Source: Thermoplasmata archaeon (lineage in GTDB: Archaea > Thermoplasmatota > Thermoplasmata > RBG-16-68-12 > JAFNFQ01). Taken from it: a DNA stretch of 39,830 nucleotides. Both the position numbers and the translations under genes were made by a program. The stretch is from contig JBGPQV010000023.1 in NCBI GenBank assembly GCA_041489255.1, positions 1-39,830 of the forward strand, given 5' to 3'. Below, piece after piece: positions 2,579 to 38,552 of this stretch (positions within the stretch are counted from its first letter, which is position 1; every line of letters starts with the position of its first letter). The notes beneath the pieces are model-generated. The model worked only from the letters and a program-made list of their open reading frames with translations, did not search any database and had not been told where the DNA came from.

Positions 2579-5392
2579 TCAGCTCGGCGACTTTGGCGGC
2601 GACTCGCTCGGTTCCTCTGTCTCCTCTTCTTCCGCCTTCGGCTCCTCGGCGGCGGGCACCGCATCTTCCTTCTTCTTCCGTCTCATCAAGACCAGGATGA
2701 CTACCGCCGCAAGGACCGCGACCACTATCACGATGGCCAGCACTACGTAGATATCGAGACCCATCAACTCTCCTCCCGCATTCACCGAGAAGGAGTGCTC
2801 TCCCGTCTGCGGATGGCGGGCCTCGTTGCCCGCGTCGTCTGTCGCGTTGATGTAGTAGTAGACAGTGCCCGATTCTGATTGGGCAGGTATGGTGGCCTCG
2901 TATGTGTCGCCAGTTATCCTGATCATCCTGACTTCAATGAACGTCGTTGCGCCGACCGCCTTGTAATGTAGGCAGACAACCTTGACGCCGATGTCGTCGG
3001 TGACGTTGACGGTGATGATGATCGCCTTGTTGACGGGGACATCGCCGTGAGGCGTGTGCGTGATGAGTGGGGGTGTGTCATCATTCACCTCGACCTGCCT
3101 GGTCGCGTTGCTGACAAGCCCGCCAGTGTCCCTGACCTCGAGGCGGATCGTGTACGTCCCGGGCGCCGAGTACTGATGGTGCGCGGCCTTGGTCGTGGAC
3201 CATGTCGTATCCCAGACACCGTCGTCCTCCCAGTCCCAGCGGACCGACAGGGAGTCGAGCGTGTCCTCTAAGTCGCTCGATTGGGAAGCGTCCACCCAGA
3301 CCGAGAACGGAGGAGAGTCCAAGGGTGGTGGCATGAGAGCGATAGCAGCCAACGGCGGACTGTTGGCCTTCGTGACATTGACCGAGGCGACCGAAGAAGG
3401 ATTTCCGCTCCAGTCCCAGGCCATCATCTCAATCCGGTTCGCGCCCAGAGAAAGCTGGACGGACATGGTCCATGATTCTGTCCCGGAGGCGTTCTGCCAG
3501 ACCCCGCCGTTGATGCGCCCCACGACGCGGAAGAGACCGTCGGCTCCGCGATCATAGGCTGAGCCCGAGACGACGATTGATGCCTCGTAGACGACCACGC
3601 CCTCTGCGGGGGACTCGATTAACACCTCTGGCGGGAAGTCATCCGCGAGCGGGATGGACGTCATCAGCGGGTATCGATCCTCGCTGTCGAGGTCAAGAAC
3701 AAACGGTGTGTCCCCGATGCCATCGGGCGCCGGGCAGATGTCCTGATTCGGACCGCTGCAATTGTCAGCCCCGAGGAAATTCGACCAATGGTTACCTCCG
3801 CTAGGGTAGCCGTTGTCCCAGCGGTTCTGCGAACCCATGTCGTCCGCGGCCTGCGTGGGATGATGGTAAATGTCATTTAGGATGTTGTTGTGATGAACGG
3901 AGATGTCTCTGGAGCCCCAGAGGAGAATCGCCTCGTTGATATTGTTGTAGAGGCTGTTGTTGTACATTGAGACATTCGTCGAAGCTTCCGAACGGATTCC
4001 GTTCCCACTTGAGAAGGAGATGTTATTCGCGGCGACGGACACGTTTTTCGAGGACGTTAGGGTTATGCCATGCCAACTCGTTGAATTCATGGCGTTGCCA
4101 ATGAGGGAGACATTCGAGCTCTGATGGATCGCCAGCCCGTAGTACCGTGCGTCCGAGACGACGTTGGCGGACAGGGTCGCATTAGATGAGAATGCGAGCG
4201 CAATGCCGCAGAGCGTGGACTGGAGGGTGTTGCCCATCAAGGAGAGCCGAGTTGATGACCACACGCCGATTCCATAGAGTGTATCCGAAATGCGGTTCGC
4301 CATGAGAGCGATGTCGTTCCCGTAGGCCACCTGGATGGCCTGATCTGTATCGGAAATCTCGAGGTTTGCTATGTTCGCTCTGGTGCAGTTGGCCAAGAGC
4401 ACCTGTCCGACGGGGATGTCGTTTAGGACGAGATCCGTGCAATCCTTGTAGTAGAGGAGCGGTCTTCCGTTCACGCTGTTGTCCGAGACAATGGTGTGGG
4501 AAGCAAAGTGAGGGCCCGTCGTTCCAGAAAGGAGGACGCCGTCGGACAGTAGGATGTTTCCTGATAAATCGATTCCCGTGGAGGAAGCAAAGAGGATGCC
4601 AACATCTTCGTTCCGGGAGATGACATTGGCACCCAGGGAGACGTTTGACGAATGGTCGAGCAAGACGCCGTATCGGCCGTTGGCGGAAACGGTATTGGCT
4701 GTGAGCGTGACGTTAGTGGATGAGTAGATGGCAATCCCATCCACATCATTAGAAGAGATGTTGCTAGAGGAAATCGAAACTTGATTAGAGGAATCCAGAC
4801 GGATGCCCGCGCCCGGATTTGAGAAAGCACTTGTGTCGCTGATGGAGACGTTCGCAGACCAAGTTAGCCCGTAGCCATAGCCATTGTTGGAGGAGAGGGT
4901 GTTGCCTGCGAGGGTGATGTCCGCAGAGTAAGAGATAAAGACGCCGTACCCTCGGCTCGAGGCAATCGCGCTGCCCGTGATGAAGATGCGAGTCGAGGAG
5001 GCTACGTAGATGCCATACCAGTTGCCATCAGACGACACGTTCTCCAGAGCGCCATCTGCTACATTGACGAGCAGGACGCCCACATTAAGCAGCCCACCGG
5101 AGTGCACACGCCCGTTCCGGATGACGAAAACGGCATCCGTATCACGAACCTCGATTCCGTTCGCTGTCGAAGCATCGATCTCCCAACCCTCGATCACATA
5201 CGGATCCGATGGAGTCCCGCTTCCGCCTGTGATGCCATTAGCGACGGTGAAATCCCCATTGCCATTTATGAGAATCGGTGCATGGGGAGTGTAGGCCGAG
5301 GCTCCCGCAGGGATTGACACCAGAACCGACAAGGAGCTCAACACGAGAATCCCTAGAACGACCGATGACCGCATCTTCGTTACCGCAAGCAT
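2579..5392 (-). CDS. Cell-surface protein: right-handed beta-helix (NosD/CASH), Ig-like and PKD domains, C-terminal TM anchor
   Basis: Signal peptide (start may be ATG 5374); many GIxLxxSxNxxIxxN repeats; PSGGNHWSN..DGIGDTP..DRYPL cap; PKD motif WDWEDDG..HQYSAPGTYTIRLEVRDTGG; hydrophobic helix followed by RRKKK and an acidic tail. Confidence 0.85.
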   Translation of the reverse strand: MLAVTKMRSSVVLGILVLSSLSVLVSIPAGASAYTPHAPILINGNGDFTVANGITGGSGTPSDPYVIEGWEIDASTANGIEVRDTDAVFVIRNGRVHSGGLLNVGVLLVNVADGALENVSSDGNWYGIYVASSTRIFITGSAIASSRGYGVFISYSADITLAGNTLSSNNGYGYGLTWSANVSISDTSAFSNPGAGIRLDSSNQVSISSSNISSNDVDGIAIYSSTNVTLTANTVSANGRYGVLLDHSSNVSLGANVISRNEDVGILFASSTGIDLSGNILLSDGVLLSGTTGPHFASHTIVSDNSVNGRPLLYYKDCTDLVLNDIPVGQVLLANCTRANIANLEISDTDQAIQVAYGNDIALMANRISDTLYGIGVWSSTRLSLMGNTLQSTLCGIALAFSSNATLSANVVSDARYYGLAIHQSSNVSLIGNAMNSTSWHGITLTSSKNVSVAANNISFSSGNGIRSEASTNVSMYNNSLYNNINEAILLWGSRDISVHHNNILNDIYHHPTQAADDMGSQNRWDNGYPSGGNHWSNFLGADNCSGPNQDICPAPDGIGDTPFVLDLDSEDRYPLMTSIPLADDFPPEVLIESPAEGVVVYEASIVVSGSAYDRGADGLFRVVGRINGGVWQNASGTESWTMSVQLSLGANRIEMMAWDWSGNPSSVASVNVTKANSPPLAAIALMPPPLDSPPFSVWVDASQSSDLEDTLDSLSVRWDWEDDGVWDTTWSTTKAAHHQYSAPGTYTIRLEVRDTGGLVSNATRQVEVNDDTPPLITHTPHGDVPVNKAIIITVNVTDDIGVKVVCLHYKAVGATTFIEVRMIRITGDTYEATIPAQSESGTVYYYINATDDAGNEARHPQTGEHSFSVNAGGELMGLDIYVVLAIVIVVAVLAAVVILVLMRRKKKEDAVPAAEEPKAEEEETEEPSESPPKSPS

Positions 5393-10214: not shown

Positions 10215-12635
10215 TTGAGACCAGGTGATGAATCATCGTTGCGGAGAGAGACCATAGTGCCAGTGGGATTCGAGCGCTTGCCAGCCGACCAAAGAATCCC
10301 TGCAATCCATGAGTTGATCCGCAAGGTGGATGGCGGCGATGCCTTGACTCGCCTGGCTGCCATGCGCGCGATTGCGAATCTCCGAAACTACATCCCGGAG
10401 GAGACGTTCTCTCCCATTGCATCGAGTTTTCTTCGTCAAGCGCGAAGTGAGGATGGAGACACTCGATGTGCGGCTGCTCGTGGAATTATTCGGTTAGGAC
10501 GCATCTTCTTGGGAATCCCACAGGACGACGCGTGGGCTGGCATTGAACCGCTCTTCTTCGATTCTGAACTTGAGACCAGATGGATTGCCACGCATTCTGT
10601 CGGATTGACCCTCAATAGCATCCCAGGGGGGAAGGCAGCCCAATTGATTGAGAAGCTCATGACGATGTGTGGTAGTCCCGGCAGAGAGGGCGAGATCGCA
10701 GCGTTTCTATTGGGCAGATTGTCGCGGGTCTTGCCGTCCGAGAGTACCGACTCCGTCGCGGCGAGATTAATCCAAGCATTCGACGATGGGGGTCTTGATA
10801 TCAAGCGCAACGCTCTTCATTGTTTCAACGAAATGGCCTGTCGATTATCCGAGAATCGGTGCTGCGAGGTTGTCGAGCGCATCGTCGACTCGCTCGCGGA
10901 TGACGAGTTGTGCGGAGAGAAGGATTTCGACCGGAGTCCTCTCTCGCCGTATCGCCACATGATTCCGGTGGCGATGAGTGAGACTGTTATGGACCGTCTC
11001 AATGAATTGACGCATCACGCGAGCACGACCGTCAGAAGGAGATCTGTGTCTGCAATCAAGACAATCAGGCATTGCATACCGACAGGCAGAATCGCTGAGA
11101 CCGCCCGCGTTCTGCTGGATATGTTTGCTGACCGTGATCATCAAGTCGGACAGGGAGCCGCTGGAGCTTTCTTGAAGATGATTGCCGCATTGAACCTGTT
11201 GCCCGAGAACGAGCGAGTCGCCATAATCGACCGATACATGACAAGCTTCGAGACAACCGACTCGGTTCCGCTGTACCTTATTGACACTGATTTCCACTTC
11301 GGATGGCGGGAGACGATTCCTGCGTCATATCGTCCCGTGGTCGTGAACCGTCTCCTGAGTATGACACACCACCCTGAATCCGGAAAAGCGCGCTCGGCGA
11401 TGCACGCTGTTGCAGCCCTCCATCGCGCAATCCCTCTGTCGATGCTTGAAGCGGTGTTCACTCGAATCATCGAAATGAGCCACGGGGAATCTCGGCGCAC
11501 CGCGTGCAATGCCTTGGCGGATATCCTGGACACAGTCGACGAGGCAGGACGCTTAATCGTTCTGGACCGTCTCTTCGAGCTTGCCGCTGATTCAGATGAG
11601 CGCGTGAAGGGAGAAGCCTTGCACATGCTCGGAATCAATGAAGACTCGATTCCAGAGAATAGAGCGCCCACAGTGGCGAAACTCCTGCTTCAGGACTTGA
11701 AGCCCAGTATGGAGCGTGGCGAGCTTTCGGCATATGACATGAATCAGCTCGGTAGCGCACTACGCAAGACGCCCCGAGAACTACGTGAAGTATTCCTACC
11801 TAAGGTTGAAATCGATTCGCTGGTGGAGGAGTTGATAAACCTTGTAGGCCAGGGCTACGAAGAAGACTGCATGGATGCCGCAGCCGCAATTGCGAGCCTC
11901 GGTTGGATCATGCCGGAGGTGCAGGTCGCTGCGACAATTGGGCGACTGGAAGAGATGCCGATGGATATTCATGGCCAAGCACCTATGGCTGCTGGATATG
12001 CGATTGGTGGATTGTTGAGTTGTCTGCCTGTTCGAGAGCGAATCGAGACGCTCAACCGCTTTCTGGATCCTGAGGGAGAACGAGGAGAATATCAGCTCCC
12101 ATGTGTATTGTCTGATTTAGGCACGGACATTCCGCCAGAATGTTTGAACAGGTCAATGGAGGCGATGCTTAGATTCACCGAGGATGACTACCCAGAAGAT
12201 GTGAGACGCACGGCGGTTGAAGCCCTAGAGCGCTTGGGCTCGATCGAAGTCGCATGGCGGGAGCAGACTGCAGACAGACTCATCCTTCTTCTCGATGATG
12301 ATGACATCTATCATTGGGCGATGAGGACCATAGGGAGCCTGAAGGAGAGTATTCCAGAAGCGAAGTGGCCCATCATTGTAGATCGGTTCATCGAACTCAT
12401 AGATCATCGCCTTTACGGACATGTCGGGGGTCAATTAGCCAAGTCTTTATGCGAATTCGGAAGCCTGATTCCCCCGGAGAAGCGGGAGAAGATAGTCATG
12501 CAGATGTTGGACATCTTTCGTCACGAGCCGGACGACGCGGAAGTTTGGCCAGTCGCGCATGGTCTGAAAGAGTTGACGAGCCATGTCCCGAAACCGCTTC
12601 AAGTCGAGATTGCCAAGGCGCTTGAGCGCGAGTAG
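10215..12635 (+). CDS. HEAT/ARM-repeat alpha-solenoid protein
   Basis: Repeated units such as DGDTRCAAARGI, DIKRNALHCF, STTVRRRSVSAI, DERVKGEALHML, EDVRRTAVEAL at ~38-40 aa spacing; start codon uncertain; visibly lower GC than flanking genes. Confidence 0.8.
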   Translation: MRPGDESSLRRETIVPVGFERLPADQRIPAIHELIRKVDGGDALTRLAAMRAIANLRNYIPEETFSPIASSFLRQARSEDGDTRCAAARGIIRLGRIFLGIPQDDAWAGIEPLFFDSELETRWIATHSVGLTLNSIPGGKAAQLIEKLMTMCGSPGREGEIAAFLLGRLSRVLPSESTDSVAARLIQAFDDGGLDIKRNALHCFNEMACRLSENRCCEVVERIVDSLADDELCGEKDFDRSPLSPYRHMIPVAMSETVMDRLNELTHHASTTVRRRSVSAIKTIRHCIPTGRIAETARVLLDMFADRDHQVGQGAAGAFLKMIAALNLLPENERVAIIDRYMTSFETTDSVPLYLIDTDFHFGWRETIPASYRPVVVNRLLSMTHHPESGKARSAMHAVAALHRAIPLSMLEAVFTRIIEMSHGESRRTACNALADILDTVDEAGRLIVLDRLFELAADSDERVKGEALHMLGINEDSIPENRAPTVAKLLLQDLKPSMERGELSAYDMNQLGSALRKTPRELREVFLPKVEIDSLVEELINLVGQGYEEDCMDAAAAIASLGWIMPEVQVAATIGRLEEMPMDIHGQAPMAAGYAIGGLLSCLPVRERIETLNRFLDPEGERGEYQLPCVLSDLGTDIPPECLNRSMEAMLRFTEDDYPEDVRRTAVEALERLGSIEVAWREQTADRLILLLDDDDIYHWAMRTIGSLKESIPEAKWPIIVDRFIELIDHRLYGHVGGQLAKSLCEFGSLIPPEKREKIVMQMLDIFRHEPDDAEVWPVAHGLKELTSHVPKPLQVEIAKALERE

Positions 12636-26549: not shown

Positions 26550-27638
26550 TCAGGAGATTGGCGGGAGCAAGAGGATGTTTTCCTCCGCGAGTGCATCCTT
26601 GCCGAAGGCGACATTCATTCGGACTTGGATGAAATGGGTCAGCTTCGATATCTTGCCCGTGATTGAGGGATGCGCATCGGCGGGGACAGAGAGGTTGAAC
26701 TGCATTGTCTGGAGTGGGCTGCCTGGAGCGGGCAGTGTGGTCTCCGCGAGTACTCTCCGGGTGACGGTTTCATGGCCCTGAGCCTTCACCCATTCCCGCT
26801 CGACGAGCCGTATCCTTGTCCCCCGCACTCGGGTGAGGTCGAAGTCTGAGAACGTGACTCTGCCTTTGACCATGCCGCCGGGCGCGGATTCCATGCTGTC
26901 CAGGCTCACCTGGAGGATCGGGACGCCACTTGCCCCCAATGACTTCTCCGACCTGAAATCCACGGGGATTGTGTCGGGATATCGGCCTCGCCATTTCACC
27001 GAGATTGTCGATTCCGCAAGCACATCGACGTCGTGGATGATTGCGATTCGGAGCATGACGACACAGCGCATCTTCACATAGCTCCCCTGCAATGAAGGGA
27101 ATACGTCAAGAGGGAGCTGGAAAGCGAAGCCGTAGGAGTATGTTCCGGGGGCCAGCGACTTGTCCTCCAGGGTGCCAAGCGCAAGCGCCGCGGTCAGGCC
27201 CTGTGCCGTCAAATCGAGTTCCCTGTCCATCCATGCCGCTTTCTCTGCGTAGACGACCTCACCTTCGCCCGCCGATTCGGTGAATCTCACCTCCTCCCCG
27301 CCCCAGGCCCTTGCGACAATCGTGCCTATCCGGAGTTTGCGCGGCACGTTGAGCTCGATGCGGCCAGTGATTTTGTCTCCAGGCCGGGCAGAATCGACGT
27401 CGAATAGTATTCGAGGCACATCACTCGACATCCATTTCAATCGGAATAGAAAAAAGGTGCAGATGATGAAACCCATCAATGGAATCATGACGCAGGTGGT
27501 GGAAATGATCGGCGGGTAAGATTTGCTCCCGCCGAAAAAGATAATCGCAGTGCCCATCAACGCGCCGAAGAACATCGTCGCAAGAATCGATGCCGATTTG
27601 GACCGATCTATCCAGAGGTTCCTCTTCACTTCAGCCAC
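26550..27638 (-). CDS. Membrane-anchored arrestin-fold (arrestin N + C / Spo0M-like) protein
   Basis: Two N-terminal TM helices, then two similar beta-sandwich units: PGDKITGRI..LAPGTYSYGFAFQLP..PSLQG and PGGMVKGRV..FNLSVP..PSITGK. Confidence 0.7.
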   Translation of the reverse strand: MAEVKRNLWIDRSKSASILATMFFGALMGTAIIFFGGSKSYPPIISTTCVMIPLMGFIICTFFLFRLKWMSSDVPRILFDVDSARPGDKITGRIELNVPRKLRIGTIVARAWGGEEVRFTESAGEGEVVYAEKAAWMDRELDLTAQGLTAALALGTLEDKSLAPGTYSYGFAFQLPLDVFPSLQGSYVKMRCVVMLRIAIIHDVDVLAESTISVKWRGRYPDTIPVDFRSEKSLGASGVPILQVSLDSMESAPGGMVKGRVTFSDFDLTRVRGTRIRLVEREWVKAQGHETVTRRVLAETTLPAPGSPLQTMQFNLSVPADAHPSITGKISKLTHFIQVRMNVAFGKDALAEENILLLPPIS

Positions 27639-30227: not shown

Positions 30228-31364
30228 CTACTGCTGCGGGGTGCTCGGTTTCTTTCTCCTCATCAGGAGGATGATCACGATCAGAGCGATCGCAACGATG
30301 AGGATGATGCTGATGTAGAGGATGATTGGCGTCTCCTCCTTTATCGGCTTCTCGCCGGTGAGGAACGCGCTCGCGAAGTTGTTGGTCTCGCTGACCTCTC
30401 TAACGAAGTTGCCCGGGTCAGCTGTGACGTTCAGGTACTGCAGGCCGAGCACAGCATCCCAAGCGACTTGCATGTAGGTCTGGTTGCCCGGGCCAAGGGT
30501 GACGCTCACATTAGTCAGGACCCGCGTCGAGCCCCCTGCATACAGGGTTACTAGCACGTGGAAAGTCGCGCTGAGCGTGCCCCAGTTCTCCACGCTAATG
30601 TTCGCGGTGATGTTGTCGCCCTCATTCGGGTGCGTGTTGGAGATGATTATGTCCTCTGTCTCGGCGACGATTTCGGGCAAGTCTTCATTCATTACGAGAA
30701 TGGAGATTCTATCCGAACCAGACAGCGATCTGTTGGTGACGGTCAAATCGTACCAATGGATTCCGACTCCCGCCGGCGCCGTGATCTGGACCCTGCACTT
30801 GCCGGTCACATTGGTCATTGTGTCCCATTGTTCAAGGGTGCTCCTTTTAATCGAGACATCTGACCATTCGGCCGGCGCGCTCGTGTTGTCGGAGTAGTAC
30901 GCGGTGACTGTGAGATTGACATTCTGCCCGGGGTACGCCTGGGTGATGTCCGCGGTCATCGTTGCGGTCATGTTGAACGCGTACTGGACGAAGATCGGGT
31001 CGGTTGAGTTGGTGTCGCCGTTGGTGTCCATCACGGAGAACACGTAGTCCATGCTAATCGAAGTCGGATCGAGGTCGACCGTCCAGTTGTAGATGTCGTT
31101 CGCATCGGGGCCGATCAGGTCATGGGGATGGCAGATGCCTCCAGGGAGCAAGTAGTAGAAGCAGTACTGGATCTGGGCGAATTGGATGGGGACCGCGCTC
31201 GTGATCTTCGCGGACATGTCCACTCGGTCTGTGAGCACGGGGAACCGTGGGAAGTGCTTCATCTGCTTGATCACCGGCGCTGCCTTCACGCCGAGGGGCA
31301 GGATCGACACGAGAAGCAGTCCTGTGATGATCATTGCCAGCATGGAGATCGACTTGCGGGTCAT
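30228..31364 (-). CDS. Surface protein with Ig-like and CARDB domains and C-terminal TM anchor
   Basis: Signal peptide; CARDB signature PNEGDNITANISVENWG..ADPGNFVREVSETNNFA; many NxS/T sequons; TM helix followed by RRKK. Confidence 0.85.
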   Translation of the reverse strand: MTRKSISMLAMIITGLLLVSILPLGVKAAPVIKQMKHFPRFPVLTDRVDMSAKITSAVPIQFAQIQYCFYYLLPGGICHPHDLIGPDANDIYNWTVDLDPTSISMDYVFSVMDTNGDTNSTDPIFVQYAFNMTATMTADITQAYPGQNVNLTVTAYYSDNTSAPAEWSDVSIKRSTLEQWDTMTNVTGKCRVQITAPAGVGIHWYDLTVTNRSLSGSDRISILVMNEDLPEIVAETEDIIISNTHPNEGDNITANISVENWGTLSATFHVLVTLYAGGSTRVLTNVSVTLGPGNQTYMQVAWDAVLGLQYLNVTADPGNFVREVSETNNFASAFLTGEKPIKEETPIILYISIILIVAIALIVIILLMRRKKPSTPQQ

Positions 31365-31457: not shown

Positions 31458-32447
31458 ATGCGCAAGGGAGAGCTCCTCCGGAAGCCCGTGAGGGACATAG
31501 AGCCGACCGACAGCGTCGTGGAACTTGTCTCGGCGATGGGGGAGGCTGGCGGGTTCACCGCCAAGAAGGTCGCGGAGGGCGTCGACATACTGGAGCGGAT
31601 GGAGCGCGTTGAATGCACCAAGTTCCTTTCCTTCCCCGCCGCGCTCATGGCGACAGGCACGCGCGGCATCCTAAGGACGATGGCGGAGAAGCGACTGGTC
31701 GACGTCGTCATCACCACCTGCGGTACCGTCGATCATGACCTCGCGAGGACCTGGCGGGACTACTATCACGGGAGCTTCGAGATGGACGATGCGGCGCTGC
31801 ACCGCCTCGGAGTGAACCGCCTCGGCAACGTCCTCGTCCCGAACGAGAGCTACGGCATCGTGCTGGAGAAGAAGGTCCAGCCGATCCTCCAAGAACTCTG
31901 GGACTCGGGGAAGAGGTCGTTCTCGACCCGCGAGCTTCTCTGGGAGTTCGGGCGGCGCGCCGACAGCCGCAAGTCGTTCCTGTGGTGGTGCTGGAAGAAC
32001 AAGATTCCCGTCTTCATCCCCGCCATCCTCGACGGATCGTTCGGCTACCAGCTCTGGTCGTTCTGGCAGGACCACAAGGAGTTCCGCATCGACGAGTTCA
32101 GAGACGAGTCGGACCTCTCGGACATCGTCTACACCGCCAAGAAGACAGGCGCCCTGATTGTCGGCGGCGGTGTCTCCAAGCATCACACGATCTGGTGGAA
32201 CCAGTTCCGCGAGGGGCTCGACTACGCGGTGTACATTACGACCGCCCCGGAGTGGGACGGGTCGCTGAGCGGGGCGAGGATGCGAGAGGGGATTTCCTGG
32301 GGGAAGGTCAAGGAGCAGGCCGCCCAGGTCACGATCGAGGGCGACGCGAGCGTCCTGCTGCCGCTGATGTTGTCGGCACTGCAGCAGAGGCTCTCAAGAA
32401 AAGAGAAGAAGGCGAGAGCGAAGGCTCGCTCTTCCCGCCATAGATGA
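31458..32447 (+). CDS. dys: Deoxyhypusine synthase
   Basis: GGFTAK, ATGTRG, NRLGNVLVPNESY, PAILDGSFG, GGGVSKHH, DGSLSGARMREGISWGK, EGDAS. Confidence 0.96.
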   Translation: MRKGELLRKPVRDIEPTDSVVELVSAMGEAGGFTAKKVAEGVDILERMERVECTKFLSFPAALMATGTRGILRTMAEKRLVDVVITTCGTVDHDLARTWRDYYHGSFEMDDAALHRLGVNRLGNVLVPNESYGIVLEKKVQPILQELWDSGKRSFSTRELLWEFGRRADSRKSFLWWCWKNKIPVFIPAILDGSFGYQLWSFWQDHKEFRIDEFRDESDLSDIVYTAKKTGALIVGGGVSKHHTIWWNQFREGLDYAVYITTAPEWDGSLSGARMREGISWGKVKEQAAQVTIEGDASVLLPLMLSALQQRLSRKEKKARAKARSSRHR

Positions 32448-32477: not shown

Positions 32478-32702
32478 TCACTTTATGAGATAGTAGCCCG
32501 CCGCCTTCTCGCGGGCCTTCCGCTTCACGTAGCCCTTCGCCATGAGCTCCTGCAGGGCGTTGAGCACCATATTCTTCGGAAGTTTCGACATATGAGTGAT
32601 CTGGTCCGCGTCGCGCATCTTGTCCTCGACTGTCATGCCGGCTGACTTCATAACATCATAGACCTTGTTCGCCCTATCGGAAACGTCCGGAAGCGGTGGC
32701 AT
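32478..32702 (-). CDS. Small basic winged-helix protein (74 aa)
   Basis: ATG 32702 preceded by GGGAGG; LPKNMVLNALQELMAKGYVKRKAREKAAGYY fits a wHTH recognition helix plus wing. Confidence 0.75.
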   Translation of the reverse strand: MPPLPDVSDRANKVYDVMKSAGMTVEDKMRDADQITHMSKLPKNMVLNALQELMAKGYVKRKAREKAAGYYLIK

Positions 32703-32933
32703 TGTGTTGCCTCCCTTTATAGGGGGGCAGTAGAACACGGCCATACAAAAGCGTTTCCATGAGGTTACGGCGGCGAATATCAGACCGGGCAACGGGAGCA
32801 GGAACGGGATTCAGGCGGTTCTTCCCGCCATCCCCCGCCGCACCCTACTTAAAGGCATCGGCAAGACTCTTCCTCAAGACACTTCCGCTGCACTAGATAG
32901 ACACCCCGCCATATCTTGTCTCAGGTGAAAAAC

Positions 32934-35123
32934 ATGCAAACCCGCGGAAAGAACGGAGCGACGGGGATTGTATTCGTGGCGATCGTGGCTGCGGTGCTCG
33001 TGACTGCCGGCATGGTAGGATTGATTCTTCGGCAGAGGAGCAACGGCAGCCTGAACGGGAATCCCGAGTACCAGGGCATCATGAGTTTCCAGCCTGGGAC
33101 CTCGGGCGAGATGACATCGACGCAGGCCGAGGCAACGAGCCTCGACAACGGCATGAGGGGTGAGGCGCGGGCGCAGAGCGTCCCCGCGGTGGCGGGGGAG
33201 CCGAGGCCGGTGCCTGAGAGCGATGTCGAGAAGGTCGAGGCGCCGGGGACTGATGGTGCGGAGGTTCAGCTTCCAGAGACCTCGGACCCGAGTCAGGAGT
33301 CTGACGACCTGTTCGAACAGCCCTCCGTTTCAGACAATGATGCGGTGAAGCAATTCGAAAGCCTGAACCAGAGCATCGGGACGGACAACGCGGCTGACCC
33401 GGTTGCGGGAGTCGGCGGCTGGTTCGACGCTCCGGATGGCGCTCCTTCTCTGAATAATGGGTTCATTCAAGAGGTCACCCCGATCAACAACATCGGCTCG
33501 TCAGGCAGCGACAACTGCACGTGGACCTGGCAGCTGATCGAGCAGAGGGACGCCAACAACGACCAGCACCCCGAGTACCTGCACGTCCACGCGCTCGGCG
33601 TGTGCAGCTCGGACAGGGACGGGGATGGCAACCCGGAGTGGCGGTTGGCGATCGCGCTTGACGTCGAGCTCTGGGACGACGACAGCGACGGGGACATTAG
33701 CGCGCTGAAGGGCTCTGTCGGGATTCACGAGACGATAGACCCGAACGACGACGGCAACGTCGAGGTCGAGGCGTACGGGGCCGGGACCCTGGAGATGCGG
33801 GACAGCAACGAGGACAAGCTGCCGGAGTACTTCGCCCTCAATTACGCGGCGGAGCAGAGCTTCGACTTGAACTTCAACGGGATCAAGGAGTACGTGAGGG
33901 CGATCGCGCTGAAGGGCGTCAACAACGACACCGATAGTGATGGGATCAAGGAGGACGCATACTTCGGCATCGTCTTCTATCACACTTTCGACGTGAGGGA
34001 CGACGGGACGAGGGAATATCAGGGCGTTGCGGGAGTCGAGGCATCGACAGTCGATGCGAACGATGACGGGAACAATGAATCGGCGGTGGTGCACATCGCA
34101 GCCTACGACGCCTACGACAACAACACCGACGGCATGCCTGAGGCCCAGAGGGGCTTCGCGCGGGCGATCGAACTGAAGGACGCGAACAGCAACGGGCATC
34201 CGGAGAGCATCGAGTTCCTGCAGTTCGCCTTCGCAGCACTGGACTGGGACAGCAACGGCGTGCAGCAGTACGGGAAAGCCTACGCCATAGAGGCGTCAGC
34301 GACAGACGCGAGCGACGACGGCAACCCCGAGCTATTGACGGTTCATGCGAGGGGAATAGAAATCCTTGACGCGAACGAGGACAGCAACCCCGAGGCGGTC
34401 AGGGGCGTCGAGGGCTGGATCAACGCGACCGACAGCGACTCGAGCGGGGTCGCGGAGAAGGTCGAGGTATCGCTCGTCGCGGGTGCGGCGCTGGACCTTG
34501 ACAGCGATGGAGTCCCACAGGCCCTCGCGGTCGCGGTGCTGCAGGCTCGCGCGGTCGACATGACCGAGGACGGTCACCCCGAAGAGGCAGTGCTCGAGGT
34601 CGCAGCCTATGCGATGCGCGACGACAACGATGACGGCAACCCGGAGGAGCAGGCGGCGATCTGCGTGAGGGCGAGCGTCGTCGACTCGAACAGCAACGGC
34701 TTCTCCGAGGAGACGAACCTGACGCTCGTCGCGGTGCACACGGTGGACAACAGCTCCGATGGCGTCCCCGAGACTGTCGGCTTCTTCGCCGCGAGGTACC
34801 TCGCGACCGACTCGAACGGCGACGGCAACCCCGAGATGAAGCTGCTGGAGGCTGTCGGTGTCGAGAGGAAGGACGCCGACCAGGACGGGAACTACGAGAG
34901 CAACAAGACGTTCGCGATGAGGATAGAGATGATCGACGCGAACAGCAACGGCATCGCGGAGGTCGTCAACATCGACGCTGCGTACCACGAGATAATCGAC
35001 AGCAACGACGACGGGGTAGTCGACGGTCAGGCGTGGGCCGTGGTGCACTACCACGGCGAGGACACGGACGAGGACGGCCAGATGGAGATCGTGGACTTCT
35101 GGATATGGGTGCACCGCGAGTGA
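32934..35123 (+). CDS. Membrane-anchored acidic protein with 25 DxDxDG-type 21-aa repeats
   Basis: ATG 32934 after AGGTGA; N-terminal TM helix; ~165-aa acidic low-complexity linker; strictly periodic C-terminal region. Confidence 0.88.
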   Translation: MQTRGKNGATGIVFVAIVAAVLVTAGMVGLILRQRSNGSLNGNPEYQGIMSFQPGTSGEMTSTQAEATSLDNGMRGEARAQSVPAVAGEPRPVPESDVEKVEAPGTDGAEVQLPETSDPSQESDDLFEQPSVSDNDAVKQFESLNQSIGTDNAADPVAGVGGWFDAPDGAPSLNNGFIQEVTPINNIGSSGSDNCTWTWQLIEQRDANNDQHPEYLHVHALGVCSSDRDGDGNPEWRLAIALDVELWDDDSDGDISALKGSVGIHETIDPNDDGNVEVEAYGAGTLEMRDSNEDKLPEYFALNYAAEQSFDLNFNGIKEYVRAIALKGVNNDTDSDGIKEDAYFGIVFYHTFDVRDDGTREYQGVAGVEASTVDANDDGNNESAVVHIAAYDAYDNNTDGMPEAQRGFARAIELKDANSNGHPESIEFLQFAFAALDWDSNGVQQYGKAYAIEASATDASDDGNPELLTVHARGIEILDANEDSNPEAVRGVEGWINATDSDSSGVAEKVEVSLVAGAALDLDSDGVPQALAVAVLQARAVDMTEDGHPEEAVLEVAAYAMRDDNDDGNPEEQAAICVRASVVDSNSNGFSEETNLTLVAVHTVDNSSDGVPETVGFFAARYLATDSNGDGNPEMKLLEAVGVERKDADQDGNYESNKTFAMRIEMIDANSNGIAEVVNIDAAYHEIIDSNDDGVVDGQAWAVVHYHGEDTDEDGQMEIVDFWIWVHRE
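33549..35123 (+). repeat. 25 x 63-nt (21-aa) diverged tandem protein repeat
   Basis: Each unit is a 9-aa loop D-x-[DNS]-x-[DN]-G-x-x-E plus 12 aa (11 plus stop in the last). 33549-35123 is 1575 nt, exactly 25 x 63. Confidence 0.93.
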
Positions 35124-35141
35124 AGCGGTGGCCCACCCATC

Positions 35142-35163
35142 TTTTTTTCTCTTTTTTTCTTTT
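35142..35163 (+). terminator. Archaeal poly-T terminator
   Basis: TTTTTTTCTCTTTTTTTCTTTT starting 19 nt after the repeat-protein stop. Confidence 0.75.
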
Positions 35164-35224: not shown

Positions 35225-35653
35225 TTATGCGGTGGCGGGTGATTTCCCTTGTCCGGTCACAGGCTTGAACTTGTAACCGTACTGGAGTATTCCTGCCTCG
35301 CCTTCCTGCCCGAGCTTCCTGAATACAGCCTCGACCCGCAATCCTATCTTCACGTCACCGGGCTCGACGTTGATTATCTGCGAGGTCAGCCTGGCCCCCT
35401 CCTTCAGTTCGATCACCGCGAGGACGTAGGGCTTCAGCAGGTCGAAGGAGCTCGGCGCGTCGTAGACGATAGTGTACGAGACAATAGTCCCGATACCGCT
35501 GAGCTTCTGCTTCATCATCTTGCCGACGCTCTTCCTCCCGCACTTGGGGCACACCGCCCTCGGCGGGAAGTCCAAGGTGCCGCAGCTGCCGCACTTCGTT
35601 CCGATGAGGTTGTACCTGCTCGGTATCTCCCGCCAGAACCTTGGCGTGGCCAT
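35225..35653 (-). CDS. DUF35 family Zn-ribbon/OB-fold scaffold of the thiolase-HMGS complex
   Basis: RFWREIPSRYNLIGTKCGSCG..FPPRAVCPKC, GILQYGYKF; directly downstream of the thiolase. Confidence 0.93.
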   Translation of the reverse strand: MATPRFWREIPSRYNLIGTKCGSCGTLDFPPRAVCPKCGRKSVGKMMKQKLSGIGTIVSYTIVYDAPSSFDLLKPYVLAVIELKEGARLTSQIINVEPGDVKIGLRVEAVFRKLGQEGEAGILQYGYKFKPVTGQGKSPATA

Positions 35654-35654
35654 T

Positions 35655-36824
35655 TCATCTCACTCTCCTGAAGATGTGGACGACGGCGGTGGCCCCGGTC
35701 CCGCCGAGCGTGTGAGTCAGCCCGACCTCAGCGTCGGTTACCTGCCTCTTGCCTCCCTCGCCCCTCAGCTGGCGGACGATCTCGATTGCCTGAGCGACGC
35801 CTGTCGCGCCGACCGGCTGCCCTCTCGCCTTTAAGCCGCCAGAGGTGTTGACGGATATCTTCGAATTCAGAGCAGTTTCCCCCTCTTCAGTGGCGGGCCC
35901 GCCCTGACCCTTCTTGACGAACCTCAGGTCCTCGATCGCCATGATCTCAGATATGGTGAAGTTGTCATGCACCTCCGCGACGTCGACATCCGCAGGGGTG
36001 AGACCCGCGCGGTGGAACGCCCTTTTCCCCGCCACAACCGTCGCGTCCATGGTCGTGAGGTCCCTCCTGTCGTGCAGAGCTATCGTGTCGCTCGCTTGCC
36101 CCGAGGCGATGAGCTCGACCGGGGTCTCGCAGAACTTCCTCGCCCTGTCGAGGCTGCACATGACGATGGCGGCAGCGCCGTCGCTCAACGGCGCGCAGTC
36201 AAAGACGCCGAGCGGATCTGCGACCATCCCCGCGTTGAGCACCATCTCCATGGTGATCTCCTTTTGGTACTGCGCCACGGGGTTCAGCGCGCCGTGCCTG
36301 TGGTTCTTCACCGCAACCGCGGCGAGCTGCTCTCTGGTCGTGCCATACTCGTACATGTGCCGTCTGGCCATGATTGCATAGAGAGCGGGGAATGTCGCTC
36401 CGAAGACCGTCTCCCATTCCTGGTCTGCGGTAGCGGACAATATCTCGGCGGCCTTCACCTCGCCCACGTCGGTCATCTTCTCGGCGCCTCCGACCACGAC
36501 AATGTCGTGCAAGCCCGAAGCGATCGCCGCGTACGCCTGCAGAAGCGCTAGAGCCCCACATGCCCCGCCGCCCTCGACCCTGGTCGTCGGCAGATGCGAG
36601 TCCGCCAGCCCGGCATAGTCCGCCACAATCGCGGAGACATGCTCCTGCTCGATGAACTTCCCAGCCGACATGTTTCCGATGTACAGCGCGTCGATGTCCT
36701 CCGCCCTGATGTGAGCGTCCTCTATCGCCTTCAGCCCTGCTTCGATCCCGAGGTCCCTGAACGACCTGTCCCAGAGCTCGCCGAACTGAGTCTCCCCGAC
36801 GCCGATGATAGCGACGCCGCGCAT
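35655..36824 (-). CDS. Acetoacetyl-CoA thiolase (archaeal type)
   Basis: Start ATG 36824 (MRGVAIIGVG); GAEKM, KNH, DGAAA, AEVHDNF, NTSGGLKARGQPVGATG. Several catalytic positions deviate from the usual consensus. Confidence 0.9.
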   Translation of the reverse strand: MRGVAIIGVGETQFGELWDRSFRDLGIEAGLKAIEDAHIRAEDIDALYIGNMSAGKFIEQEHVSAIVADYAGLADSHLPTTRVEGGGACGALALLQAYAAIASGLHDIVVVGGAEKMTDVGEVKAAEILSATADQEWETVFGATFPALYAIMARRHMYEYGTTREQLAAVAVKNHRHGALNPVAQYQKEITMEMVLNAGMVADPLGVFDCAPLSDGAAAIVMCSLDRARKFCETPVELIASGQASDTIALHDRRDLTTMDATVVAGKRAFHRAGLTPADVDVAEVHDNFTISEIMAIEDLRFVKKGQGGPATEEGETALNSKISVNTSGGLKARGQPVGATGVAQAIEIVRQLRGEGGKRQVTDAEVGLTHTLGGTGATAVVHIFRRVR

Positions 36825-36826
36825 CT

Positions 36827-37873
36827 TCAGTCCCCCCTCATGCGTATCTTCCCGCGGAACTTCGCGTAGGTCCCGTAGTCGAGGAACTTCGCGTCCTTCG
36901 TCATCTCCTCGATAGTCTGCGCGCGCTTGAGCTTCTTGATTCCAGACGTGACGGTCATGTCGAAGGCATCGGAGCCCGCGCCGGAGCCGTAGCCGACCAT
37001 GAATATCCTGTCCCCGGGCACGGCCCTGTCGAGGATCGAGCATAGGCCGAGGAGGACGGCTCCCGAGTATGTGTTGCCTATCGACCTCACTAGCATGCCC
37101 GCGTCGAGCTGCTTGTCGTCGAAGCCGAGGGTCCTGCCGACCTTCACGGGGAACTTGCCGTTGGGCTGGTGGAAGACCGCGTAGTTGTAGTCTTCAGGTT
37201 TTGAGCCTGCCTTGTCCATGAGGAGCTTCGCGCAGCTCATGACGTGCTTGAAGTACGCCGGCTCGCCGGTGAACCTCCCGCCGTGACTTGGGTACTGCTG
37301 GCCCTCGCGCCGCCAGAAGTCGGGTGTGTCGGTTGTATAGGAGACGGTTTGATTGATCTCCGCGATGAGGTTCTCCTTGCCTATGAGGAGGGCCGCGCCG
37401 CCGGCGGATGCGCTGAACTCGAGAGCGTCTCCCGGCGCGCCCTGGGAAGTGTCGGAGCCTATCGCCATCCCGTACTTGATCATGTCAGAGAGTGTGAGGC
37501 CCATGCAGGTCTGTATGGCCGCCGTGCCGGCCTTGCACGCGAACTCGAAGTCGGCGGCGGTCATCACGGGCGTGGAGCCTATCGCCTCTGCTACGACGGT
37601 GGCTGTGGGCTTCACCGCGTAGGGGTGGCTTTCCGATCCGACGTAAATCGCCCCGATATCGGTCGGCGCGATGTCCACCTTCTTCAGGCACTCTCTCGCC
37701 GCTTCGACTGAAATCGTGATGACATCCTCGTCCGGCGAGGGGACGCTCTTGGCGTTTATCCCGAGGCTTTTTCCCATCGCCTCGCCGTCGACGCCCCAGA
37801 CGTTCCCTATTTCCTTCGGCGTTATCCGATAGCGCGGCACGTAGCCACCGTAGCTCACAATTCCAGCGACCAT
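36827..37873 (-). CDS. Hydroxymethylglutaryl-CoA synthase
   Basis: Start ATG 37873; [11 protein letters not shown], catalytic [39 protein letters not shown]. Confidence 0.97.
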
Positions 37874-37874
37874 G

Positions 37875-38552
37875 CTACAACCTCTCGAGTCTCCTGATGA
37901 GTTCGTCAGTGTCAAGCTCGGTCCTCGCGAGCGAGATGCTCGACAGCTCCGCGAGCTTCACGGCTAGAGCGTCGACGTTCTCCGGGCGCACGTAGACCAC
38001 CAGGGCGGGCTTCAGCGGCTGCGCTCTGATCGCGACCATCGGCGACCTGCCGAACGTGACGCCGGTGAATATCAGCGCTCTCTCGCTCGATGTGCCGAAG
38101 ATGCGCAAGTAGTCGGAGGCGTCGAGGGTCGTGATCGCCTTGATGCTGTCTATGACCGTGTAGCCATAGAGCGACTTCGATGGCGGCCCCGAGCGGGTGA
38201 GCAGCCTGCCCGCTATCGTCCTTAGGAAGGTTGACTGCCTCATGCCGGCGGGCAGCTCCCTGATGCTCGGTATGACCTCGGAGAAGGGCTCCTCGAACCG
38301 CCTTGAGAACCTGCGACCGGAGGATTGGTCTATCTCCAGCATCGCCTCGACGAGGCGTTTGATAGTCTTCGAGCCGGGGGAGCTCCTCCTTCCAGACTCG
38401 TAGTCGCTGATCACCGAGGGCGAGACCTTCAGGTGGCGGGCCATGTCCAGCTGGGAGATCTTGAACTCCTCCCGCCATTTCCTGAGGACGCTGCCCGGGT
38501 CGTCGGAGAGGACCACCTCGCCCGCTATCTTCTTCGTCAGCGAGGACTGCAC
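37875..38552 (-). CDS. XRE-HTH transcriptional regulator commonly found upstream of archaeal HMG-CoA synthase
   Basis: [67 protein letters not shown]. Confidence 0.9.

Follow-up and report, generated by a model that had tools for sequence, protein, structure and literature searches.

Introduction

The integrin-type "calcium blade" is a hairpin built around the loop Dx[DN]xDG, followed two positions later by an acidic residue, and the account of it by Rigden et al. (PMC3123361) includes human examples with Pro-Glu at positions 8 and 9. The same nine-residue loop lies between two beta-strands in FG-GAP/VCBS proteins (PF01839, PF13517), often with proline at position 8 (PMC3123361). Here we describe P0001, a protein of 729 aa that repeats a loop of this type 25 times. 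Its gene occupies positions 32934..35123 (+, stop codon included; taken from the list of open reading frames (ORFs) and the translation) of a 39,830-nucleotide stretch of DNA from a Thermoplasmata archaeon (contig JBGPQV010000023.1), to which we refer as the window. The calcium loop of P0001 is not novel, since by its sequence it is the integrin-type calcium-blade hairpin. The 21-aa loop-plus-strand unit, which would build a long amphipathic meander, corresponds to neither a described family nor a solved fold among the libraries that we searched. Additionally, no description of a 21-residue calcium-loop-plus-strand unit was found in the literature searched, which did not extend to subscription journals. 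For overall shape the closest described system is the belt of apoB100, which is presented in PMC11839476 as a continuous amphipathic sheet, 4 nm wide, with strands averaging 11 residues and an inner face that rests on lipid.

Reading the sequences of P0001 and its relatives together, we propose that the module represents a new and uncharacterised repeat family across the Thermoplasmatota, which we call the calcium-hairpin meander. The family is unannotated: neither Pfam nor NCBIfam models it, and none of its relatives has a solved structure. It nevertheless occurs, in single copy, in most sampled genomes of an uncultured Thermoplasmata order. On the boldest version of our reading, which we consider doubtful, the meander would join EF-hands, beta-rolls and calcium blades as a further class of Ca2+-binding repeat architecture, and one with no solved representative. 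Should the predicted structure hold, it would be a new construction made from the common DxDxDG loop, in which each turn of a flat meander holds a metal site, and would offer a way into the study of the cell envelopes of these sediment archaea. The unit is short, regular and apparently tolerant of repeat number, which would also make it attractive for the design of Ca2+-switchable beta-sheet materials.

Repeat anatomy of P0001

The repeat region (33549..35120, +) comprises 25 units of 21 aa, each made up of a nine-residue loop, D-x-[DN]-x-[DN]-G-x-P-E, and a 12-residue strand, as defined from the sequence, the ortholog alignment and AlphaFold2 (AF2) modelling. The register is strict from residue 206 (nt 33549) to the C-terminus, with zero indels, and the last unit has 20 residues. 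Loop position 1 is D in every unit (25/25), D or N fills position 3 in 21/25 and position 5 in 24/25, and the rest of the pattern consists of G at position 6 (22/25), P at position 8 (12/25) and E at position 9 (21/25). The calcium-blade form Dx[DN]xDG-xx-[DE] is found in 25/25 units with minor substitutions. A relaxed version of the loop pattern gave 24 matches and 22 consecutive spacings of 21, compared with a mean of 0.29 motifs (maximum 4) and of 0.0005 spacings of 21 (maximum 1) in 2000 shuffles of the domain. The autocorrelation of Asp had its maxima at 21, 84, 63 and 42. Tandem Repeats Finder detected no 63-bp tandem repeat in the DNA of the gene, which indicates that the units are old and diverged. 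A first-pass annotation of the window, made from the letters of the DNA, had described 25 highly diverged loop units in exact phase and with no indels, and the register, the shuffles and the missing DNA repeat all agree with that description.

Units resemble one another in a hierarchical way. Profile similarity between units was highest at separations of 4, 8 and 12 (1.10, 1.00 and 1.01), compared with 0.55-0.62 at odd separations, and a smaller peak appeared at 2. We interpret this as a 21-aa unit nested within a 42-aa hairpin and an 84-aa four-strand super-repeat. The hydrophobic register alternates between neighbours, with hydrophobic positions 11, 13, 15, 17 and 21 in odd units and 14, 16, 18 and 20 in even units. 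The repeat domain as a whole (524 residues) contains 114 acidic and 28 basic residues, for a net charge of -86.

Upstream of the units, P0001 begins with a hydrophobic helix at approximately residues 9-31 (32958..33026, +), which from its sequence and the equivalent stretch in orthologs would be a signal-anchor or an uncleaved signal peptide. In most of the orthologs compared, the equivalent hydrophobic stretch follows a basic N-terminus. The helix is followed by an acidic Ser/Gly/Pro/Ala-rich linker of ~150 aa (approximately residues 32-184; 33027..33485, +), assigned from its composition and predicted to be disordered in the part that was modelled. The linker is of low complexity (S 10.9%, G 10.3%, E 8.6%, P 8.0%), and its end falls in protein residues 160-191 (model residues 1-32), where the predicted local distance difference test score (pLDDT) is below 50. 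The protein contains ten N-x-S/T sequons. Sequence and composition thus uphold the single transmembrane-like stretch and long acidic linker noted in the first-pass annotation. A further strand, strand 0 (residues 185-205; 33486..33548, +), leads into unit 1; it bears the first conserved Cys, C195, and corresponds to an AF2 strand at model residues 36-46.

Predicted fold and structural comparisons

We modelled residues 160-729 of P0001 with AF2 using 28 aligned sequences (model 1) and obtained a mean pLDDT of 89.9 and a predicted template modelling score (pTM) of 0.78. The model contains 26 strands of 11-12 residues, of which strand 0 precedes unit 1, with nine-residue loops between them and nothing else; there is no helix in the repeats. 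In the ortholog-averaged spacers the hydrophobic moment was 0.92-0.93 at 170-180 degrees versus 0.38 at 100 degrees, a 2.4-fold difference of the beta type. Prediction and sequence statistics therefore support an antiparallel meander of ~26 strands with acidic loops along both edges, the arrangement that had been put forward at the outset. A second AF2 model, of a distant paralog of 483 aa (13 aligned sequences, pLDDT 69.9), shows nine regular strands of 11-12 residues with nine-residue loops, after an N-terminal helical part and shorter irregular strands.

The predicted sheet is strongly amphipathic. When residues were assigned to faces on the assumption that position k pairs with 31-k in each hairpin, face A had a mean hydropathy of +1.38 and face B of -0.48, and A exceeded B in 25/25 units. 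Face A is Ala/Gly-rich alongside Val, Leu and Phe, and it carries a conserved polar row in which E, Q or H at position 19 of odd units stands opposite G, A or R at position 12 of even units, with R at position 12 in 40/60 class-2 cells. At the start of the sheet, C195 of strand 0 is invariant in the family alignment, and all 12 orthologs also have a Cys in unit 1, displaced by two positions in 2 of them. These cysteines oppose each other across the first hairpin, and such a conserved pair would fit an extracellular disulfide.

The structure prediction and fold search proposed in the first-pass annotation thus gave a beta-meander, and Foldseek returned no global match for it (template modelling score, or TM, ≤0.26 for model 1). 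For model 2 the scores were TM ≤0.22, with no E below 1e-3 and no barrel matched. When Foldseek's top 1000 entries were re-aligned, the apoB100 beta-belt ranked first (9bde_A, Z 16.6, 425 residues aligned at a root mean square deviation (rmsd) of 14.8 Å, spanning model residues 27-570), followed by 9coo_A at Z 14.6, with the next row at Z 11.9. Outer-membrane barrels appear in the structure lists at Z 8-12.5 and superpose at 13-33 Å over long ranges, and the 26-strand barrels MtrB and LptD do so at 22-30 Å over 363-404 residues. Low rmsd was reached only over partial ranges, chiefly with very wide barrels or lipid-binding sheets: SprA (262 residues, 7.5 Å), FhuA (229 at 5.7 Å), PiuA (194 at 5.7 Å) and lipovitellin (136 at 5.6 Å). 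No beta-propeller is among the best 50 matches of either structural alignment list, a result that does not in itself exclude that fold. Teneurin/Rhs shells, which head the Foldseek list for model 1, were set aside, as their TM of 0.05-0.08 and their position outside the Foldseek-independent top 50 point to local hairpin likeness.

Rather than a barrel we favor a ribbon that is open and gently curved and measures ~13 x 4 nm, based on the apoB100 top match and on the variable number of units among subfamilies. The closed barrel or pore that had been suggested for this gene is consequently disfavoured: the 26-strand barrels fit poorly, relatives have other unit numbers, and an open belt is the best analogue.

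Conservation and distribution of the family

Orthologs of P0001 were compared in an alignment of 12 sequences at 39-93% identity, all from one order of Thermoplasmata. All 25 units are retained in the 12 orthologs, and each unit has its own conserved signature. Five places account for all the indels of the repeat region. These are strand 0, the unit 2 loop (-3, +1), the unit 17 loop (+11, seen in one ortholog), one position close to unit 1 and a short C-terminal tail. Identity per position was calculated on 7 of the 12 orthologs after the near-duplicates L002, L005, L007, L011 and L012 had been dropped. The loop ligand positions are the best-conserved columns, with mean pairwise identities of 0.98, 0.76, 0.87 and 0.87 at loop positions 1, 5, 6 and 9; the corresponding values for faces A and B are 0.35 and 0.26.

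Matches were found in 32/301 sampled genomes of the class, and 29 of those 32 lie in the window's order, of which 42 genomes besides the window's own were sampled (summed from family rows). Most of the class matches align over domain residues 1-524, in open frames of 725-789 aa. The family profile reached further, with a match at E ≤1e-8 in 52/401 sampled genomes of the phylum (31/162 genera). Among 1.84 billion representative sequences, only 85 matched at E ≤1e-3 and 5 at E ≤1e-30; close homologs are labelled by the source databases as Thermoplasmata or Thermoplasmatota metagenome-assembled genomes (MAGs). DNA contigs of related strains from three sediment runs carry the gene with no internal indel. 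Three short metatranscriptome contigs from one sediment run fall on the gene at 91-99% identity, which is a weak hint that it is transcribed in a relative; stretches of the gene that no RNA contig covers in run X24 are not informative.

We collected 111 proteins, the query included, of which 93 have at least 3 loop pairs at a spacing of 21 and lack Cys pairs. In true relatives the module is C-terminal to CarboxypepD_reg, PKD, He_PIG and other Ig-like domains. The first-pass annotation had called for a check of repeat-number variation among homologues, and we found that in-phase runs extend from 4 to 24 units, with lengths of ~11, 15 and 21 recurring, while 25 is the fixed number in the orthologs. 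In two of the collected proteins, P0029 and P0030 (507-508 aa), a loop of the same D-A-D-S-D-G-N-P-E type recurs every 31-32 residues; they may represent a sister architecture in which Ca2+ loops line a single edge of the sheet.

Comparison with known repeat families

Searches of P0001 against known families were essentially empty. Pfam gave a single chance-level match (Inhibitor_I53, E 0.47, 11.1 bits against a cut-off of 25), NCBIfam none at E ≤10, and the PDB no sequence match; the ESM Atlas search yielded no usable match. Specifically, P0001 has no Pfam match at E ≤10 to FG-GAP or to RTX/HemolysinCabind, the unit here being 21 aa with a different loop, and none in Pfam to TSP_3, its spacers being hydrophobic strands that lack a Cys pair. 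LLTP or apoB chains are absent from its PDB sequence and profile matches. A profile built from 23 family members retrieved from the PDB only EF-hand chains, all marginal (best 8fns_A, E 9.5e-4), and we attribute these to the DxDxDG loops. 8fns_A, which we take to be the lanthanide-binding lanmodulin, is a 105-aa EF-hand protein whose loops recur every ~21-25 residues. EF-hands are characterized by an acidic residue at loop position 12. In P0001 that position varies, being most often A, K or R, and the acidic ligand comes three residues earlier, at position 9.

FG-GAP/VCBS proteins warrant closer comparison, as some orthologs carry precomputed FG-GAP or VCBS labels. With PF01839 or PF13517, the whole-protein scores of P0004, P0005 and P0010 are 24.8 and 27.4 against a cut-off of 22.1, and 30.5 and 27.1 against 26.9. 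On rescanning these orthologs, 0 stretches passed on their own. With PF01839 the best of them span 6-20 or 7-19 of the 37 profile positions, which means that the calcium loop alone accounts for the scores, and with PF13517 only one of the best three is complete. A full-length confident match to a described family such as FG-GAP/VCBS, which would have told against the first-pass annotation, was therefore not obtained. Beyond the common loop the two architectures appear to differ. Units of P0001 recur every 21 aa and would place a loop at each turn, along both edges, whereas propellers have one loop per four-strand blade, and P0001 lacks the FG or GAP flanks and is predicted to be a continuous meander with no blade crossovers, and not a toroid. 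Propeller blades are ~45-65 aa long.

The apoB100 belt and the P0001 model have in common a long, open, amphipathic antiparallel sheet, ~4 nm wide, with strands of ~11-12 residues. Unlike P0001, the apoB belt lacks Ca2+ loops and has irregular strand lengths, long inserts and 120 strands, and the two are not related in sequence. Borrelia OspA likewise has an extended antiparallel meander with no second layer (8xwg_A, Z 8.4, 255 aligned, 10.5 Å; 5ys7, Z 8.9), but its single layer is short, capped by globular domains and polar on both faces, whereas one face of P0001 would be hydrophobic throughout. RTX beta-rolls and the 19-residue repeats of the Marinomonas antifreeze protein are Ca2+-dependent beta-solenoids. 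Like P0001, where the sites are putative, RTX proteins and related solenoids consist of short tandem repeats with an acidic Ca2+ site in each, are strongly negative and probably fold outside the cell in a Ca2+-dependent manner. RTX-type solenoids are, however, parallel, with GGxGxD-type turns and Ca2+ held between turns, in contrast to the antiparallel strands and self-contained hairpin loops predicted for P0001.

It had been stated that no known family combines a loop at every turn with a 21-aa period. This stands in that no family matched P0001, but the loop itself is known and TSP3-like repeats also have a 21-aa period. Five of the 111 collected proteins (P0049, P0088, P0095, P0099 and P0104) are bacterial proteins with such repeats, 14-22 near-identical copies of 21 residues each, beginning with DxDxDG as in P0001. 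Their spacer, unlike that of P0001, is a second acidic cluster with C-D-x-C and no hydrophobic strand, and the copies are near-identical. We rejected them as relatives, because they were recruited through the loop and have only the 21-aa period in common with P0001. One of these proteins also carries FG-GAP_3, ASPIC and a type IX secretion system (T9SS) sorting tail, and another has a metallophosphatase domain.

With regard to origin, the family probably arose by amplification of the FG-GAP/VCBS calcium hairpin, although it does not appear to be a propeller.

Proposed role and alternative explanations

Based on the modelling, we give a probability of about 0.5 to P0001 being a membrane-tethered, extracellular, open beta-ribbon of Ca2+ loops that serves a structural role in the cell envelope by self-association. 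In such a protein the last 545 residues would form one continuous open antiparallel meander of 26 strands of ~12 residues, and by analogy with the apoB100 belt the ribbon would measure ~13 nm x 4 nm. Each hairpin turn would be an integrin-type Dx[DN]x[DN]GxPE calcium loop, with ~13 such turns along one long edge and 12 along the opposite one. In integrin structures four side chains of this loop, those of residues 1, 3, 5 and 9, coordinate Ca2+ together with the carbonyl of residue 7, and by analogy with calcium blades one Ca2+ would be held in each loop of P0001 in the same way. Given the net charge of -86, folding is expected only once ~25 divalent cations have filled the loops. These cations, presumably extracellular Ca2+, would staple the hairpins and stiffen both edges, and cation-dependent folding would couple folding to export, as in RTX proteins. 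The analysis itself shows how the repeats are built and conserved, how amphipathic they are and which secondary structure is predicted for them; that the loops bind Ca2+, that the ribbon is open, what its hydrophobic face contacts and what the protein does are inferred.

The hydrophobic face is continuous along the length of the predicted ribbon and so must be buried against something. We suggest that tethered ribbons could self-associate through this face to yield a Ca2+-dependent surface layer; a second possibility is that each ribbon rests flat against the lipid of the cell itself, in the manner of the apoB100 belt. Archaeal S-layer glycoproteins are abundant, lattice-forming surface proteins that have a membrane anchor and a glycosylated spacer; of these traits, P0001 shows an anchor, a spacer and sequons. 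Formation of S-layer lattices is often Ca2+-dependent. Self-association is favored by that precedent together with the tether and its sequon-bearing spacer, the presence of a single copy conserved across the order, and the Ala/Gly-rich face. An envelope role further draws on the relatives in which the module follows Ig-like surface domains. In a bolder version, which we consider doubtful, P0001 would be the first prokaryotic beta-belt, a Ca2+-stapled, tethered ribbon of ~13 nm, hydrophobic on one side, that coats lipid or another ribbon and, with others of its kind, provides an entire Thermoplasmata order with Ca2+-dependent armour.

Several points weigh against this proposal. The open-ribbon shape is read indirectly, from the patterns of rmsd and Z in the structure searches. 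Every structural match has a large rmsd (at least 5 Å for partial fits, 14.8 Å for apoB), and Foldseek TM values stay at or below 0.26. AF2 can idealise repeats, and the alignments behind both models are shallow (28 and 13 sequences). Among the orthologs the number of units is strictly 25, which a closed fold of defined size would explain equally. The polar row on face A and its Ala/Gly richness fit neither a plain lipid-binding face nor any partner that we can name. Finally, the evidence for transcription consists of three short metatranscriptome contigs from one run.

Some of these points bear on the other ways in which the protein could be read. It is possible, though unlikely, that P0001 lines the cell's own membrane, with its hydrophobic face in the outer lipid surface and its Ca2+ loops at head-group level, so as to reinforce a possibly wall-less archaeon; some Thermoplasmata lack walls. 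The continuous hydrophobic face in 25/25 units and the N-terminal helix that would tether the protein to the membrane are consistent with this, as are the partial lipovitellin match (136 aligned, 5.6 Å) and the rank of apoB100, with its inner face on lipid (PMC11839476), as best structural analogue (Z 16.6 and 14.6). An Ala/Gly-rich face with a conserved charged row is, however, unlike a typical lipid-contacting surface, a linker of ~150 residues would be superfluous for reaching the cell's own membrane, and at 14.8 Å the apoB match speaks to shape only. A closed barrel of 26 strands, either soluble and rimmed with Ca2+ or forming a membrane pore, is very unlikely. It would explain why unit number is strictly fixed in 12 orthologs, and the high pTM (0.78), the outer-membrane barrels in the structure lists (Z 8-12.5) and 12-residue strands long enough to span a membrane are compatible with it. 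MtrB and LptD nevertheless superpose at no better than 22 Å, with fits of 5-8 Å being partial only; relatives have other unit numbers and the model of the 483-aa relative matches no barrel; and ~12 strongly acidic loops would need to cross the membrane, with a charged row on the hydrophobic face. We know of no machinery for beta-barrel insertion in archaea.

The loops could also be the function itself, with rows of carboxylate loops ~1 nm apart in an adhesin or a scaffold that binds mineral or sequesters metal ions. This we regard as quite unlikely: the 114 acidic residues of 524 do lie in two regular rows, the runs that hold half or more of the sampled sequence words are sediment metagenomes, and the PDB matches of the family profile are exclusively EF-hand metal binders (marginal; 8fns_A, E 9.5e-4), but known proteins use this type of loop as a structural Ca2+ site complete in itself, and the strands and hydrophobic face are conserved too, which a mere ion sponge would not need. 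The chance that P0001 is an unusual FG-GAP/VCBS-type propeller, whose four-strand blades would be the 84-aa super-repeats, appears slim indeed. Unit similarity peaks at 4, 8 and 12 as expected of four-strand blades, the loop is the propeller "calcium blade" motif, and P0004, P0005 and P0010 are just over the whole-protein cut-offs for PF01839 or PF13517; against this, P0001 itself has no FG-GAP match at E ≤10 and no ortholog stretch passes alone, 25 identical tight nine-residue hairpins leave no room for a crossover from blade to blade, 26 is not a multiple of four, and the AF2 strands are uniform at 11-12 residues. We attach next to no weight to an EF-hand-type array with helical spacers. Its appeal lies in EF-hand-like DxDxDG loops, spacers rich in Ala, Leu, Glu and Arg, and the marginal profile matches to EF-hand chains, but the hydrophobic moment is 2.4x higher at 170-180 than at 100 degrees, AF2 places no helix in the repeats, and in the loop the acidic ligand is found at position 9 and not at 12, with Pro frequent at 8.

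Gene boundaries, genomic context and other features of the window

The start of the P0001 gene at ATG 32934 is preferred to an alternative upstream TTG at 32916, as the orthologs likewise begin with M-Q. Past the stop codon, a short stem-loop followed by a T-rich tract (35127..35163, +) is a likely transcription terminator by consensus match only. The first-pass annotation had noted a poly-T terminator here; the T-rich tract is indeed present immediately after the stop (35140-35163), whereas the terminator assignment remains a consensus match, since 3 terminator-like sites were found in the region and 2.4 were expected from shuffled sequence.

The gene is single copy in its own 2.74-Mb genome. 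Its neighbours are a deoxyhypusine synthase gene (31458-32447, +), a gene for a small TrmB-like protein (32478-32792, -) and, on the other side, a trio encoding a DUF35-type OB protein, a thiolase and a 3-hydroxy-3-methylglutaryl-CoA (HMG-CoA) synthase (35225-37915, -). These neighbours point to an archaeon. They are common to the same genus only, and a locus search with the single protein matched a MAG of the same genus only. Across 10 loci from other genera, with flanks of ~1.5 kb, no conserved flanking ORF or operon partner was found. We conclude that the gene stands alone, as the first-pass annotation had it.

The thiolase ORF (35655-37043, -) has an Arg-rich N-terminal extension of ~73 residues, and the Pfam Thiolase_N match begins at residue 77; its true start is probably an internal Met. 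Several probable envelope proteins are encoded in the window, among them a likely surface protein of 937 aa with right-handed beta-helix/NosD repeats and a PKD domain (2579-5392, -) and a protein with a CARDB domain (30228-31364, -). In a 362-aa ORF (26550-27638, -) Pfam recognizes Arrestin_N (E 4.4e-12) as well as Arrestin_C (E 1.1e-7), which would make its product a full arrestin-like fold protein. An 806-aa ORF (10215-12635, +) contains HEAT/adaptin-like repeats (HEAT_2, E 8.3e-11).

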